Of a DNA stretch of 64,000 nucleotides, positions 40,237 through 49,685 are shown one piece after another. Each line of letters starts with the position of its first letter. Positions within the stretch are counted from its first letter, which is position 1. Origin of the DNA: an uncultured delta proteobacterium (GTDB lineage Bacteria > Desulfobacterota > Binatia > UBA9968); contig CAVUVW010000014.1 in NCBI GenBank assembly GCA_963745035.1, positions 320,001 through 384,000 on the forward strand, in the 5' to 3' direction. The notes beneath the pieces are model-generated. The model saw nothing but the letters and a program-made list of their open reading frames with translations, was not told where the DNA came from and did not search any database. A program made the translations under genes and the position numbers.

Positions 40237-40777
40237 TTATCTTCCGACGATCTTAGCGATCAACCCCGACCACTGGCCCTGGCTTTTGAGCAGCAGCTCA
40301 GCGACTTCGCGCACCGCGCCGTGTCCGCCGCGGGCAGCGGTTACGAAGTCGGCGGCAGCGCGAACGCCTTCCCAGCCGTCGGCGACCGAAAAGGCGACGC
40401 CCGCGCGGCGTAACAGCGGGAGATCGACGATGTCGTCGCCCATGAAGGCAATCTGGGCGTCGCTCAAGCCGGCGCCTTTGCCGGATCGACTCGTAGGCCG
40501 CGAGTTTGTCGCGCACTCCTTGTCGGAGGAGACGAACGCCGAGATCCCTGGCGCGATGGCGCACGCTGGCTGAAGAGCGGGCCGTTAGGAAGCCGACTTC
40601 GATCCCGCCGCGCAAGAGCAGAGCGATGCCCTGCCCGTCGCGCACATGAAAGTGCTTGGTTTCGACGCCGCGGTCGTCGACGATGATGCGGCCGTCGGTG
40701 AGCACGCCGTCGACGTCGAGCAGCAGCAACACGATATTTTTGGCCTTGCTGCGAAGGCGCGCGGGAATACGCTTCAC
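40237..40777 (-). CDS. kdsC: KDO-8-phosphate phosphatase (HAD family; frameshift near 40475)
   Basis: LLDVDGVLTDG, FHVRDG.GI, GDDIVD, GG.GAVRE. Confidence 0.9.
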
Positions 40778-40788
40778 GGCGCGCTCGC

Positions 40789-41767
40789 TCAGATCCCCGT
40801 CTTGAGAATGTCGTGGAGATGAATGATGCCGACGGGTTTGCGGCCGCCGTCGAGCACGAACAGGCAAGTGATCGGACGCGTGGGGTTCGCTTCCATTTCC
40901 GCCAGCGCCTGGGCGGCGAGCGCGTCTTTGTCGATGGTCCGCGGACGGGCAGTCATGACCTCGTCGGCTTTCTTGTGGAGAATCCCATCGCCGTGAGCTT
41001 GCAATCCGCGGCGCACGTCGCCGTCGGTGATGATGCCGACGAGCGCGCCGCTTCGCGTCGATTACGCCGGTCACGCCCAAGCGCTTGGAGGTGATCTCGA
41101 ACAGGGCGTCCTTGACGGACATGTCGTGGCGTACCAACGGCAGTTCCTCGCCTCGATGCATCAAGTCCTCGACGCGTAAAATCAGTCTGCGGCCCAAAAT
41201 ACCGCCGGGATGGCGCACCGCGAAGTCTTCTTCCTTGAAGCCCTTCTGTTCCAGCAACACAACCGCCAGGGCGTCGCCCATCGCCAGCGCCACCGTCGTG
41301 CTCGCGGTGGGAGCCAATCCCAGCGGGCAGGCCTCCTTCACACGGACGTTGAGCACCACGTCGCCCGCGCGGGCGAGCGACGACTCCGGATTGCCAGTCA
41401 TGACGATCAATTTGATACCGTGCAGCTTGAAATGCGGCAGCAGCTTGAGAATCTCCTCGGTCTCGCCGCTGTTGGAGACCGCGAGGATCACATCGCCCTT
41501 CATCACCATGCCGAGATCGCCGTGCATGCCATCGCCGGAGTGGAGAAAAAACGCCGGTGTGCCGGTGCTCGCAAAAGTCGCGGCGATCTTACGGCAGATC
41601 AAACCGGACTTTCCCAGCCCGGTCACCACCACCTTGCCGCGACATTGGCGCAACATCTGCACCGCGCGCACGAAGCTCTCATCCAGGCGCTCGACCATGG
41701 AGAGAATTCCCTCCGCTTCGATGCGCAGCACGTCGGCGGCGCGCGTGAGCGCTGCGCTCGATTTCAC
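40789..41767 (-). CDS. kdsD: Arabinose-5-phosphate isomerase (SIS + CBS; frameshift near 41055)
   Basis: [34 protein letters not shown]; CBS pair. Confidence 0.92.
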
Positions 41768-42627: not shown

Positions 42628-45063
<2,436 letters not shown>

Positions 45064-45121
45064 TCATTAACTCAGATGTGAAAACGCGTACACTGGCATC
45101 ATCGTCGGGACGGGTTCCGCC

Positions 45122-45165
45122 AAAAAGAAAAAACCGTAACCGCTTTCGGCGAAAGCGCATTACGG
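45122..45165 (-). terminator. Leader terminator/attenuator upstream of kdsB-pyrG
   Basis: CCGTAA-TG-CGCTTTC-GCC-GAAAGCG-G-TTACGG followed by T6CT5. Confidence 0.75.
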
Positions 45166-45171
45166 AATTTT

Positions 45172-45200
45172 AATATACGCGGCGCATAAAAATGTGTCAA
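45172..45200 (-). promoter_or_regulatory. sigma70 promoter for the kdsB-pyrG operon
   Basis: TTGACA(45200-45195)-17-TATATT(45177-45172). Confidence 0.8.
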
Positions 45201-45424
45201 CGAGTTTCTGCCAATGGTGCTCAGGGAAATTCGAATTCCATCCACGGGAATTCGTGCCGTCATGCGCGCGCGAAAAAATTACCGCAAAAACTTCGATAAG
45301 CGCAACCGGCGCTACCGTCGATCGAAAGGCGCATGACCACGTGAGCGCGCGGGAGAATGTCGCAGCATGGTTGGAAAGCCCAAGAATAGGGGATGGAGAG
45401 CGCGCAGGCAGGCCGCCGAAACGC

Positions 45425-48400
45425 TCAGGATGTCCGCAGCGACCACTCCAAAACCGGCTCGGTCGGGCGCTCGCCGGCGGCGACCTCGATGCGATCTCGA
45501 CCGGTCTCCTTGGCGCGGTAAAGCGCGTGATCGGCCGCCTGCAGCAGCGATTGGCTGGTGCGCCCGTGCACCGGATAGAACGCCACACCCATGGAGACCG
45601 TCACCGCCTGGATCGATTGACCTTCCTCGCGCACGATCATGCCAGAGAGGTCGCTGCGCAGCTGTTCAAGCCGCTGGCGGGCGTCGTCCACGGAGATATC
45701 GGGGAGGATAATCACGAATTCTTCGCCGCCGTAGCGGCAGACGATGTCGCTGCCGCGAAACTTGGCTTTCAGCAGCTCGCTCCACTCGCGCAGCACGGCG
45801 TCAGCCGCGGTGTGGCCGAAGGTGTCGTTGAGGCGCTTGAAGTGATCGATATCCACCATCGCCACTACGACCGTCCTGCCCAACCGCTCGGCCCGGCTCA
45901 ATTCGCGGATCAGAGAGTCCTCCATGTAGCGGCGGTTGAACAGTCCCGTTTGCGGATCGCGGATGCTCTGGTTCTTGAGCGTCTCCCGCAGGCGGAGATT
46001 GGCGAGAATCAACGACAGCTGCTCGGCGGCGGCGAGCGCCGACTGGGCGATGATGTTTCTCACCCCTTCGTGGCTCTCGGCATAGCGAATATGCAGCAAG
46101 CCCATGATTTCACCGTGGGCGACCATGGGCAGACACAAATACGCTGTGCCGTTCTCCAGCTCGACGTGTTTGCAGACGAGGTCCGTTTCCTCGGACGCCA
46201 TGCCGTGCGGCTTGTTGCGCCGCAGCGCCCAGCAGTCCTCGGGGTCGAGAATCTTGTCGAACTCGCCGTTGGGCTCGCCCCAGTGGCTCACGCTTTCGAG
46301 CAGGTTGCGCGAGGCGGCGATCATGTAGAGCACCCCGCGGGTGCCGCGCAGCAGCAAGGGCAGGCGGCGCGAGATCACGTTGTGGGCCTCGTCCAGGTTG
46401 CGGCACGATTCCAGCAGCTCGACCATCTCGCTGACGAGCCTCATTTCCTGGTTGCGCCGCTCGAGCTCAAGCACCGAGCGTTGCAGATCGTCGTGGGCCT
46501 GCTGGAGCTCGCTTTCGACCAATCGCCGCTGGGCGTTTTCGGCTTCGAGCTCCTTGGTTCGTTCGGTCACCCGATGCTCCAGGTTGGCGTTGAGCGCCTG
46601 CACTTCGCCGGTGCGTTCGGCCACCCGGCGCTCGAGCGTCACGTTGAGCGCGCGGATTTCCTCCTCCACTCGCTTGCGCTCGGTGATGTCGACCACCGAA
46701 GCCAGCACCTCGGTGCCGCCGGGCGCGGGAATCGCATTCAGGCTGATTTCGACGGGAATCTCTGTGCCGTCGCTGCGCAGCGCGAACAGCTCGCGGCCCC
46801 GGCCGATGGAGCGCGGCTCGGTTCGATCGAAAACCTGCTCGGAATGGCCGGCCTGCGCGGCGCGGAAGCGGGCCGGCAGCAAAAATTCGGTGGGCTTGCC
46901 GAGCAGCTCTTCGCGCGAATACCCGAACAATTGCTCCACTTGCGAATTGACCAGAGTGATCGTGCCGCTTTCGTCGATGCGCAGCATGCCGTAGGGCGCC
47001 GACTCCACCACCAGGCGCAGTTGCTCCTCGGCCGATTTCTGCTCGCTGTTATCGACGTACATGGCGCGGGTGCCGACGATTTCGCCGGCGCTGTTGCTGA
47101 CCGGATCTCCCCGCACCAGCACCGGGATCAGCGCGCCGTCGCTGGCGATCAGCTCGCGGTCGCCGGAGACGACATTGCCTTGCATGGCGTCGCGGTAGCC
47201 GTTGTCTCCCAGCAGTTTGAGGCGCGACGACGGCGAATGAAAGTCGGCAAGCGGACGACCGATGACATCCTTGCGCGCGTATTTCAGCGTCTTCAAGAAG
47301 ACTTCATTGCAGTCGGTGATCACCGGCGCGCCGTTTTCATCGCCGGTGAGGACGTACATGGCGGGCGCCGCGTCGAACAGCGCGCGGTAGTGCCTCTCGG
47401 CGAGTTGCATCTGCAGCAGCGCGCGGTCGCGCATTCTGAGATAAAGGATCAGCGCGGCGGTAATCAGAATGCCGATCAGCAGCACCCCGAGGCTGTCCCA
47501 AATTGCTCCAATACCTGGGTAACTCGCGCCTGGCCGTGCCACCAGCAGCAACTCTCGGCCGCCGAGCGCCAACTGTGCCGCCTGGTGCGAGCCGATTTGC
47601 GCTTGCACGAGCTTCTGCACGTTGGCGGCCGGGAGTGACTCGTTCCACCCTCCAGACGTCGCCGCGAACGACGCCAGGTGCAGCGGCTCCTCGTCGTCGG
47701 TCACGTCGAGCAGATGGATTTCCCGGTTGCGAAACGATCCAACGGCCGCGGCGGATTTGGCCAATTCGATGATCGGAATTTCGATTCGAACTATTCCCAA
47801 GAACTTTTCCCGTCGCTGCGCCACCGAGGCGGGATCGGCCTCGTGATCGAGATAGAGCGGATCGTAAAGGTAGAGCCGCGGTCGGTCCTTTTTTCCGCGC
47901 GCCGTGCTCGCGAACGAAGCGGTGGTGCGATTAAAATCGCGCGCCGCATTGAGCACCGCCGCTGTTTCCGGAATCGACGCCAAGTCCAGCCCGATCTCGC
48001 TTGGGTGATCGCCCACCGGCTCGGAAAAGAGAATCGGATAGTATTCCGGGCGGCTCCCCGCCGCTACCCGCTCGCCGAGGGTCGTCCATTCGAAAACTTC
48101 GAACTGGGGCGCGCCGTCCACCCGGGCGCGCGCCTCGAACTGTGCCCGCCCCTCGATCTTGACCCGCGGCACCCATTGCAGCTGCGCCGGGGGCCGGTCA
48201 CCGCCGGAAAGCCGTGCGAGGAACTTACGAAAGTCCGCGCGCCGCACGCCCTCCGCGGTGGTCAGCAGACCTTTGACCGCGCGCGAGCGCTCCACTGCGC
48301 GTTCACTACTTCTTTCGACTTGGCGTGCCAGCTCGTGGACATCCTGGCGCAGTTTTTCATTGGCGGAAACGATTTTGTTTTGCCACATGAGATAGGAAAC

Positions 48401-49051
48401 CACCAAGGAGAGGCCGAGCCAAACCGTCGTGATCGGGAAAACGATGGGCGTGAGCGCGCCCCGCCGGCGCCAGGTGAGAATCATCATCATCAGCAGGGGC
48501 GTCAACGTCAATATCCCCGCATAGTCGCTCACCCACAAGGTGAGCCACACCGACGCCGCCTCGCTTGTCGAAAGCGCTTGAGTGATTTTCAGCGCCGCCG
48601 CCGCGACCGACGGCGAGATCACCGAGCTGAGCGCCACCAGCCCGATGAAAAGAAGAATATCGCGTGCGGTACTCGGCGCGCGCCGTAAATGCGGGGCCTC
48701 GCTGTGGACGCAAAGATCGGGGATGAAGCGGCGAATCAACAGCGTCGCCGTCAACATTTGCAGAGCCGCCGCCGTGGCGATCGCCAGTGGTGCCGCCGGC
48801 GCCGCCAGACCGTCGAGCGCTTGAAAACTCACGATCAACGCGCCGATCCAGACGCCGATGCCGCCGCGATAGCCGATCGCCAGGCCGACCGTCAGAGCAA
48901 TCGCTGCCGGCGGCGAGAGCGGAGAACCGTGGCCGTACAAAGATAAATGGGGCTTGATCTGGGCGCTCAGAACATACAGGACGGCGACGACGACTGCTTC
49001 AAGCAACAATCGGAGCGGCAGCCGTGTCGAAATTGCTTTCATTCCTTGCAC
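45425..49051 (-). CDS. Diguanylate cyclase (MASE1-CHASE-PAS-PAS-GAF-GGDEF)
   Basis: Multi-TM N-terminus, CHASE-like WVPRV…YYPI…GLDL, two PAS/PAC domains, D.QTGLFNRR, RGSD I-site, RYGGEEF. Confidence 0.92.
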   Translation of the reverse strand: MQGMKAISTRLPLRLLLEAVVVAVLYVLSAQIKPHLSLYGHGSPLSPPAAIALTVGLAIGYRGGIGVWIGALIVSFQALDGLAAPAAPLAIATAAALQMLTATLLIRRFIPDLCVHSEAPHLRRAPSTARDILLFIGLVALSSVISPSVAAAALKITQALSTSEAASVWLTLWVSDYAGILTLTPLLMMMILTWRRRGALTPIVFPITTVWLGLSLVVSYLMWQNKIVSANEKLRQDVHELARQVERSSERAVERSRAVKGLLTTAEGVRRADFRKFLARLSGGDRPPAQLQWVPRVKIEGRAQFEARARVDGAPQFEVFEWTTLGERVAAGSRPEYYPILFSEPVGDHPSEIGLDLASIPETAAVLNAARDFNRTTASFASTARGKKDRPRLYLYDPLYLDHEADPASVAQRREKFLGIVRIEIPIIELAKSAAAVGSFRNREIHLLDVTDDEEPLHLASFAATSGGWNESLPAANVQKLVQAQIGSHQAAQLALGGRELLLVARPGASYPGIGAIWDSLGVLLIGILITAALILYLRMRDRALLQMQLAERHYRALFDAAPAMYVLTGDENGAPVITDCNEVFLKTLKYARKDVIGRPLADFHSPSSRLKLLGDNGYRDAMQGNVVSGDRELIASDGALIPVLVRGDPVSNSAGEIVGTRAMYVDNSEQKSAEEQLRLVVESAPYGMLRIDESGTITLVNSQVEQLFGYSREELLGKPTEFLLPARFRAAQAGHSEQVFDRTEPRSIGRGRELFALRSDGTEIPVEISLNAIPAPGGTEVLASVVDITERKRVEEEIRALNVTLERRVAERTGEVQALNANLEHRVTERTKELEAENAQRRLVESELQQAHDDLQRSVLELERRNQEMRLVSEMVELLESCRNLDEAHNVISRRLPLLLRGTRGVLYMIAASRNLLESVSHWGEPNGEFDKILDPEDCWALRRNKPHGMASEETDLVCKHVELENGTAYLCLPMVAHGEIMGLLHIRYAESHEGVRNIIAQSALAAAEQLSLILANLRLRETLKNQSIRDPQTGLFNRRYMEDSLIRELSRAERLGRTVVVAMVDIDHFKRLNDTFGHTAADAVLREWSELLKAKFRGSDIVCRYGGEEFVIILPDISVDDARQRLEQLRSDLSGMIVREEGQSIQAVTVSMGVAFYPVHGRTSQSLLQAADHALYRAKETGRDRIEVAAGERPTEPVLEWSLRTS

Positions 49052-49685
49052 ACTATCGCCGAAACTGGCATCCCGCGGATTCGTTCTGAGCGTCGTTCTA
49101 TTCCAATGCCGGATACGACGAATTAGAGATCGAAGCAGCGCGATGCATCTGAGAAAGCCGACGCGCTCGTCAAAGATATTTCAAATCAATTATCCGCTCT
49201 CCGCGGATGCCTTGTCAATCACGCGCAGGCCGTCGTTGAAAGCGCCCGTTCAGGTGATCGCGGGCGCACCGTGCTCATTTCATCCTGAATCTCAATTTGA
49301 CCGACCATGTCGTCGCCGGTCACGTAGCCTTTCCGCGTTTCGATTGAGTTTGGCTTGCGCGATGCCGCCGAACGGAGCAACGACGTGCCTACAAACGCTT
49401 GAAGGACTGATCCCGGCGACGACGTCGGAAACATAAAATGACGGCGGTCTCGGTAATCGGTCGAATAGCGGGCATGCGAGATTTCATGGGATGTCCAGCG
49501 CGGCCGTTTTTCAAAGGCGAGCCTGGTATTGCAATCGCGCATCGGCGGCTTGGCTGCGAACCTCTTGAAACCTCTTGACTGCTCACGGCCTGAGCGTGCT
49601 AGGAGGATAGTTTAGTTGCTCGGCGAATATCGCACAATGTAGGAAATCGCGATAAGTTCGCCAGAAACGTACTTGCGAGAGCAAA

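Follow-up and report, generated by a model that had tools for sequence, protein, structure and literature searches.

A conserved, probable leader terminator at the predicted start of the kdsB-pyrG-kdsA operon in uncultured Binatia, with a possible role for CTP-dependent start-site choice

Transcripts of pyrC and pyrD in E. coli and Salmonella carry two extra C's at a high CTP/GTP ratio, by which a 5'-terminal hairpin is completed, and start with G at a low CTP/GTP ratio (PMC6524683). The hairpin is described as hiding the ribosome-binding site, and control is therefore translational. The earlier note on this DNA had claimed that E. coli pyrC shares the T6-C7-C8-G9 start region described below, with initiation at C7 when CTP is high and at G9 when it is low; the published account bears out two extra C's at high CTP and a G start at low CTP/GTP (PMC6524683), and its support extends no further. 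In the pyrG leader of B. subtilis, transcription starts at GGGC, slippage at the start adds further G's, and the resulting poly-G pairs with the pyrimidine-rich 5' arm of a leader terminator (PMC7039003). In E. coli, most greA transcripts end at a terminator in the leader, which gives rise to the GraL RNAs of 40-60 nt (PMC2836576). Finally, in the antitermination described for Tphi of phage T7, short RNAs made at initiation disturb the hairpin of a terminator by pairing with it (PMC2952870).

The locus reported here lies in a stretch of 64,000 nucleotides (the window, meaning the whole stretch analysed) from the genome of an uncultured member of the Binatia, a lineage that we take to be widespread in soil. 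Its features, in the order of transcription, are as follows.

45425-49051, co-directional with kdsB: upstream gene for a PAS-GGDEF cyclase (NCBIfam)
45200-45195, minus strand: -35 hexamer TTGACA, from a promoter scan
45177-45172, minus strand: -10 hexamer TATATT, separated from the -35 by a 17-nt spacer
45171-45166, minus strand: start region AAAATT, followed by C7 (45165), C8 (45164) and G9 (45163), together the predicted start window
45165-45134, minus strand: predicted terminator hairpin CCGTAATGCGCTTTCGCCGAAAGCGGTTACGG, 32 nt, with 14 pairs, one bulge and a 3-nt loop
45133-45122, minus strand: U tract U6CU5, TTTTTTCTTTTT, abutting the stem
45060-45121, minus strand: remaining 62-nt leader up to the kdsB start, with no conserved structure or promoter (alignment of 66 leaders; RNAalifold on 14 leaders)
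44286-45059, minus strand: kdsB, CMP-KDO synthetase (NCBIfam NF003952, 307 bits)
42628-44274, minus strand: pyrG, CTP synthase (NCBIfam), its ATG 11 nt past the kdsB stop codon
41764-42621, minus strand: kdsA, KDO-8-phosphate synthase (NCBIfam)

The promoter TTGACA-17-TATATT, the AAAATT-C7-C8-G9 start region, the hairpin and the U6CU5 tract ahead of kdsB had all been pointed out in the earlier note, and every part is correct as described there. The promoter scores 11/12 in the promoter scan; 60 kb of the window contain 21 promoter-like sites, of which no more than 2 reach this score. The canonical start, 7 nt past the -10 of this near-consensus sigma-70-type promoter, coincides with the hairpin's initial base, and two C's and then a G stand in the start window. 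C7-G, C8-G and G9-C are the first three pairs of the stem. The hairpin is stable and contains G+C, and the U tract follows directly on the 3' side of the stem, as is usual for intrinsic terminators, whose U tracts measure about 7-9 nt. The kdsB ATG (45059) is 62 nt past the U tract and 74 nt past the end of the hairpin; the leader terminator is upstream of pyrG, with kdsB intervening. The other promoter of score 11/12 in the 60 kb, TTGACA-18-GATAAT at 49189-49218 on the minus strand, lies immediately upstream of the PAS-GGDEF gene; its -10 is overlapped by a short hairpin at 49208-49192.

The combination is rare in the 7.4-Mb genome. Just 3 of 1395 promoter-like sites are followed, 5-11 nt past the -10, by a lone hairpin with a T run at its end, and the kdsB-pyrG site is the best of the three in both promoter score and stem energy. 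By BLAST and by the covariance model described below, the stretch carrying the element is single-copy in the window's genome. A simple terminator scan misses this hairpin, probably on account of the bulge, since such a scan looks for a stem without gaps, and generic terminator scans of the window came out near the shuffled expectation and are uninformative. Terminators of canonical type do exist in this genome, as seen from a clean 16-pair hairpin at 6638-6673 on the minus strand which is preceded by A's and followed by T's and resembles a canonical bidirectional terminator. A search of 44000-46500 against Rfam gave no family matching the element at E values up to 10; four weak matches in that interval lie elsewhere.

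A covariance model was built on 26 sequences from relatives. It was then run on 100 sources, namely the window and 99 loci, from which repeat fetches of the same genomes, the loci of family f3 (see below) and eight short loci had been left out, and the 99 matches obtained reduce to 63 distinct sequences. All 63 have an unchanged TTGACA as the -35 and a -10 of the form TAnnnT, and in every case exactly 6 nt separate the -10 from CCG. The promoter spacer is 17 nt long in 55 of them and 18 nt in the other 8. The hairpin always starts with CCGT, its CCG occupying positions 7-9, and always finishes on CGG; in all 63 the stem base is closed in the predicted fold, and at least 6 of the first 8 bases past the stem are T in all 63. 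Position 6 is always a pyrimidine (T in 59, C in 4), so that the spacing of TCCG and the hairpin upstream of kdsB and pyrG, whose conservation the earlier note had proposed as a check, are kept in 63 of 63 elements if C is accepted at position 6 in four. Variation is free in the sequence of the promoter spacer, in the loop, and in the stretch of 60-70 nt that leads from the U tract to the start codon. The length of the hairpin ranges from 25 to 35 nt; its half-sites are thus not at a fixed distance, which disfavours a dimeric DNA operator.

The U tract is typically broken by A or G at position 7 or 8 in the relatives, and by C in the window. A recent preprint proposes particular dinucleotides at the transcription bubble's edges for intrinsic terminators, GC before U7 and then RU (bioRxiv 10.64898/2026.05.29.728758). 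Most relatives have the purine-U break, but the stem ends in GG rather than GC.

The pattern of change in the stem is that of a folded RNA. In an alignment of 26 sequences, 93.1% of cells hold a standard pair, compared with 37.5-44.0% when the partners are slid against each other, and five stem pairs have changed on both sides. In family f2 the upper stem has been rebuilt in different letters. Among 25 distinct sequences, the pair at stem position 4 is U·G in 15 and that at position 5 is G·U in 14; such pairs would be A/C mismatches on the opposite strand, and folding is therefore restricted to RNA in the sense of kdsB. A weak segment of wobble and A-U pairs is clamped by the three basal G-C pairs. 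Over the 63 sequences the mean hairpin energy is -16.1 kcal/mol, and -10.4 kcal/mol without the CC/GG pairs. When 14 whole leaders were folded together with RNAalifold, the terminator hairpin alone was obtained, with no alternative fold of the leader, and an alignment of 66 leaders showed no conserved second promoter between the element and kdsB. Its conservation shows that the combination of promoter and hairpin is not a matter of chance.

Searched across the order, the covariance model matches 81 of 123 genomes, each exactly once; these genomes belong to two families and about 25 genera. The matches comprise 75 of 89 genomes in family f1 and all 5 in family f2, plus the window's genome; none of the 28 genomes of family f3 matches, and neither does any of 150 other genomes of the phylum. 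The kdsB loci of relatives that were examined all share the same promoter-hairpin design. Five genomes of the window's own genus gave no match. Four of these (G001, G006, G011 and G016) have no kdsB match either, and in them the locus is therefore probably unassembled. The counts include four unpublished genomes (G005, G076, G079 and G093), and no conclusion depends on these alone.

An exact-pattern scan of the genomes of 185,579 species gave 55 matches, nearly all of them in metagenome-assembled genomes labelled Candidatus Binatia or 'Deltaproteobacteria'. Element records were also seen under the labels Limnocylindrales, Verrucomicrobiia and Syntrophobacter(aceae) (L088, L096, L085, L091, L104 and L110). 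Their scores equal those of records from the Binatia order (L088 equals L019, and L096 equals L006), and the submitter taxonomy or the binning is probably off for these six. One of the 55 matches, in a metagenome-assembled genome labelled Chloroflexia (L106, 7703-7767, which corresponds to about 1604-1668 of L141), was rejected as a chance look-alike. It has TTGACA-17-TAGAAT, the 6-nt gap, a hairpin whose base is likewise CCGTAACG...CGTTGCGG, and a U tract that is weak, and it fails the covariance model; its TTGACA overlaps the stop codon of the upstream reading frame, a transposase-like reading frame lies downstream on the other strand, and its genome lacks a close kdsB.

Family f3 has a related but different leader. 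In six kdsB leaders of this family (L028-L031, L134 and L136), TTGACA-17-TATGAT is followed, after the same 6-nt gap, by a 5'-terminal hairpin that starts with GGRC at position 7 and closes with GUCC, and then by CCUC; there is no U tract. The CC starts therefore go with the terminator form of the hairpin. Three of the six start with GGGCTC, the same six letters as in the initially transcribed region given for B. subtilis pyrG (PMC7039003), and the other three with GGAC. Among 29 pyrG loci from other families of the phylum, kdsB is directly upstream of pyrG in 15, and none of these 29 has a leader with a hairpin and U tract beside the operon start. Two of the 29 have between them four terminator-like hairpins, at 576-1164 nt upstream of pyrG.

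Wherever there is enough DNA to tell, the element is tied to this operon. It was never seen away from kdsB among 56 distinct loci. kdsB is downstream of 53 of the 56 distinct elements, the other 3 having at most 230 nt of downstream DNA, and in 50 of these 53 its match starts 45-73 nt past the U tract. For the other three the distances are 119, 199 and 302 nt, and the alignment at 119 nt begins at residue 19. pyrG follows kdsB in 50 of the 56 loci, the remaining 6 being too short to tell, and kdsA follows pyrG wherever the downstream DNA is long enough. Given that kdsB and pyrG are never apart in the genomes that bear the element, a link with CTP synthase is inseparable from a link with KDO synthesis.

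Some details of the surroundings may be recorded here. No clear ribosome-binding site was found in front of kdsB. A loosely conserved motif GCAYCYSTGAAT occurs about 20-30 nt on the 5' side of the kdsB ATG in several relatives (L003, L004, L008 and L013), with its counterpart in the window at about 45075-45090; in some genomes it reads CACCTC, a sequence more like the 3' end of 16S rRNA than like a Shine-Dalgarno sequence. After kdsA, at 40298-41767 on the minus strand, there is a reading frame of 489 amino acids with a KdsD/KpsF match at residues 10-240 and a KdsC phosphatase match at residues 333-432, which may be a fused arabinose-5-phosphate isomerase/KDO-8-P phosphatase, or may be two genes read as one. 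On the other side of the element the usual neighbour, in 28 of 51 loci (for example L011 and L013), is a conserved gene, divergently transcribed and resembling that of a binding protein.

The anatomy is that of an attenuator: a strong promoter is followed at once by a terminator and no conserved promoter comes after it. The element is very probably a promoter-proximal intrinsic terminator serving as a leader attenuator of kdsB-pyrG-kdsA, with the working of both promoter and terminator predicted from the sequence. Since the hairpin runs from the predicted +1 and the leader has no alternative fold, control in cis could act only through the 5' end of the RNA.

How the 5' end might matter is suggested by folding the transcript from each start. 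RNAfold gives -15.9 kcal/mol for an RNA that starts at C7, -13.9 for C8 and -11.9 for G9, and in the RNA started at G9 the two G's adjoining the U tract are unpaired. Completion of the stem in these predictions needs the two 5' C's, as for the hairpin of pyrC and pyrD. The earlier note had argued that a G9 start removes both of the C-G pairs beside the U tract, and by RNAfold it does, at a cost of going from -15.9 to -11.9 kcal/mol. With regard to the starts themselves, position 7 past the -10 is reported as the modal start (55%), followed by position 8 (29%) and position 9 (7%), and RNA polymerase strongly favours a purine start preceded by a pyrimidine (PMC5730371). Position 7 is thus the best place to start and G9 the best base, and C7/C8 and G9 are therefore plausible competitors. 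With regard to the effect on termination, positions at the stem base beside the U tract are described as critical (bioRxiv 10.64898/2026.05.29.728758), and in the greA leader terminator disruption of the bottom three pairs gave 2.5- to 4-fold more full-length RNA (PMC2836576). C7 and C8 would act as a clamp because the segment above them is weak.

The mechanism that we propose is the following. When CTP is plentiful, RNA polymerase would start at C7, which needs CTP at the first two positions; the RNA would form the full stem, with C7-G and C8-G set against the U tract, and most transcripts would end at about 40-46 nt. When CTP is low relative to GTP, the start would move to G9, and the two G's beside the U tract would be left partnerless. 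The stem would then be weaker by about 4-6 kcal/mol, its end would lie 2 nt farther away from the U tract, and read-through into kdsB and pyrG would increase. Low CTP would in this way raise CTP synthase together with CMP-KDO synthetase, an enzyme that uses CTP, a logic that fits the operon. We note that such start regions are not enriched in this genome: YCCG at positions 6-9 is found at 16 of 1391 promoter-like sites (1.15%), which by a rough estimate is about what chance would give, and no wider regulon is therefore visible.

Start-site switching of this kind is consistent with every feature of the sequence. That there are two start sites, that the choice between them depends on CTP/GTP, and that this choice changes termination, is as a whole a tentative proposal. 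We consider switching to be the best single explanation, ahead of each single rival, and hold it as unproven and well short of probable. The element might accordingly be pictured as a CTP sensor of a hitherto undescribed kind that needs no protein, in which starting with C or with G, two bases apart, makes or unmakes the basal pairs of a terminator that begins at +1; we offer this picture as a possibility of about the same standing. The same applies to its corollary, that the chemistry of initiation may set termination some 40 nt later with no alternative fold in between.

The rival that survives best keeps the leader terminator and lets something other than the start base set the read-through; we regard it as somewhat doubtful. 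It could take several forms. Fixed partial termination could damp the strong promoter and insulate the operon from upstream transcription. There is precedent for this in the greA leader terminator of E. coli, which stops about two thirds of transcripts in any growth phase (PMC2836576), and in the window's genome no terminator belonging to the co-directional cyclase gene is evident ahead of the element. A fixed damper, however, leaves the CC pyrimidine start of 63 of 63 elements unexplained, where a purine start, to judge by the motif reported in bioRxiv 10.64898/2026.05.29.728758, would presumably serve a plain terminator at least as well; a 6-nt spacing that never drifts also tells against this rival. 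Alternatively, a factor acting in trans, such as an RNA-binding antiterminator or NusA/NusG, could act on the lower stem or on the kinetics of termination. The sequence of the lower stem is indeed conserved well beyond the CCG that start-site switching requires, and beyond the needs of pairing; against a bound factor speak the unconserved loop and the absence of any linked candidate for a binding protein. The invariant CCG and CGG could likewise reflect a bound factor, or the ordinary demands that any strong terminator makes on its stem base. A further such factor acting in trans could be abortive RNAs made at this promoter, which have complementarity to the 3' arm, much as abortive transcripts are reported to antiterminate T7 Tphi by hybridising to one arm of its hairpin (PMC2952870).

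It is distinctly unlikely, in our view, that the hairpin is mainly a 5'-terminal stem-loop that guards the operon mRNA from decay dependent on the 5' end, with termination secondary or weak. Protection of this kind calls for a hairpin at the very 5' end, as in the ompA leader of E. coli, and this requirement would account for the invariant spacing. The strict placement at +1 would thus serve an mRNA-stabilising hairpin as well as a terminator, and the leaders of family f3 appear to keep such a hairpin without the terminator, at the same distance from the -10 and with no U tract in any of the 6 loci. Against this reading stands the U tract itself, which all 63 of 63 elements keep; it adjoins the stem directly and, as is described for strong terminators, tends to be broken by a purine. 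A stem of 14 pairs followed by U6-8 is, moreover, expected to terminate bacterial RNA polymerase.

A still less likely reading, to which we give little weight, is that promoter and terminator form the gene of a small RNA of about 45 nt, with kdsB expressed by leakage. GraL provides a precedent (PMC2836576), and the element is single-copy and highly conserved, the stem sequence included. The RNA would, however, consist of nothing but the hairpin and a U tail, with no single-stranded seed; the element never occurs apart from kdsB; and there is no conserved promoter between the two.

Finally, we give next to no credence to the view, listed by the earlier note among the findings that would count against it, that the hairpin has no other task than to terminate the cyclase gene upstream of it and that the promoter match is fortuitous. 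In the window 260 nt separate the end of the cyclase gene, which is co-directional, from the hairpin downstream, but in the 51 distinct loci with at least 900 nt of upstream DNA the neighbour is a cyclase in 8, a divergent gene in 28 and something else in 15, so that the element precedes kdsB whatever gene is upstream, the -35 and the form of the -10 are invariant over about 25 genera, and synteny excludes this role.

Six RNA runs hold small shares of the stretch, in the form of assembled contigs, and four of the runs were aligned. One contig of 151 nt (X15 record 6, with 2 other letters and 1 gap) spans 44997-45148, from kdsB through the U tract into the hairpin loop, and another of 325 nt (X16 record 15) spans 44777-45102; no contig of the four runs covers 45222-45335. 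These contigs would fit a start within 45148-45393 and some read-through, but starts, ends and strand cannot be read from them and carry-over of DNA is possible, and we draw nothing from them.

The literature was searched for precedents. No paper was found on a kdsB-pyrG leader, and a search combining Binatia or Binatota with attenuator, riboswitch or terminator gave nothing relevant among the matches listed. For pyrG together with start-site switching, the titles and opening abstract lines of the papers listed point to no switch coupled to a terminator, and the main text of a survey of premature terminators mentions neither pyrG, kdsB, kdsA nor CTP. The element is a new, uncatalogued family of leader terminators of kdsB-pyrG-kdsA in two families of Binatia.

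Whatever its trigger, this is a sharply defined, single-copy family of cis-regulatory RNA that can be added to the catalogues of RNA families. If the proposed switch is real, it would be a third route to control by CTP, beside start-site switching at pyrC and pyrD and reiterative transcription at B. subtilis pyrG, and would join two textbook controls of pyrimidine synthesis, the start-site switching of pyrC and the attenuation of pyrG. It would also be the simplest attenuator yet seen, made up of a promoter, one hairpin and a U tract, in which the initiating nucleotide is the variable sensed and which dispenses with antiterminator, leader peptide, aptamer and protein. The synthesis of CTP and that of CMP-KDO, and hence of LPS, would be co-regulated in this lineage.

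Set beside the known systems, the element has its nearest parallel in layout in E. coli greA/GraL, where a strong promoter is likewise followed by an intrinsic terminator within about 50 nt and the stem is conserved (PMC2836576). GraL differs in that termination is described as unaffected by growth phase, the hairpin is not at +1 and the gene context is unrelated. With T7 Tphi it shares the possibility that RNAs made at initiation pair with a terminator hairpin, given that the initial transcript in Binatia is the 5' arm itself (PMC2952870); the phage case involves T7 RNA polymerase, action in trans on a distant terminator and G-rich abortive products.

The likeness to pyrC and pyrD of E. coli and Salmonella is closer. 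Both have two C's and then a G at about 7-9 nt past the -10, in both the hairpin with which the RNA begins is completed by the two extra C's, and in both no protein or ligand-binding aptamer would be needed and the target is a gene of pyrimidine nucleotide synthesis (PMC6524683). Unlike the hairpin of pyrC and pyrD, that of the Binatia is the stem of an intrinsic terminator and is far from the start codon, and control would therefore act on transcription; in the RNAalifold prediction for 14 leaders there is no pairing with the start region that would sequester a ribosome-binding site. There is also no sequence homology between the two and no Rfam match, and the host is an uncultured lineage of Binatia.

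With the pyrG leader of B. subtilis, the element shares the gene controlled, CTP synthase, and the use of a leader terminator as output, and in both the 5' end made at initiation would decide whether that terminator forms (PMC7039003). The means are different. There is no GGGC in the initially transcribed region, the start being YCCG in 63 of 63 elements with no run of G's; the hairpin of the Binatia runs from +1 rather than lying downstream; and the 5' end would complete the terminator instead of competing with it. The Binatia element is thus like pyrC and pyrD in its proposed sensing and like B. subtilis pyrG in its output, and is a member of neither class.
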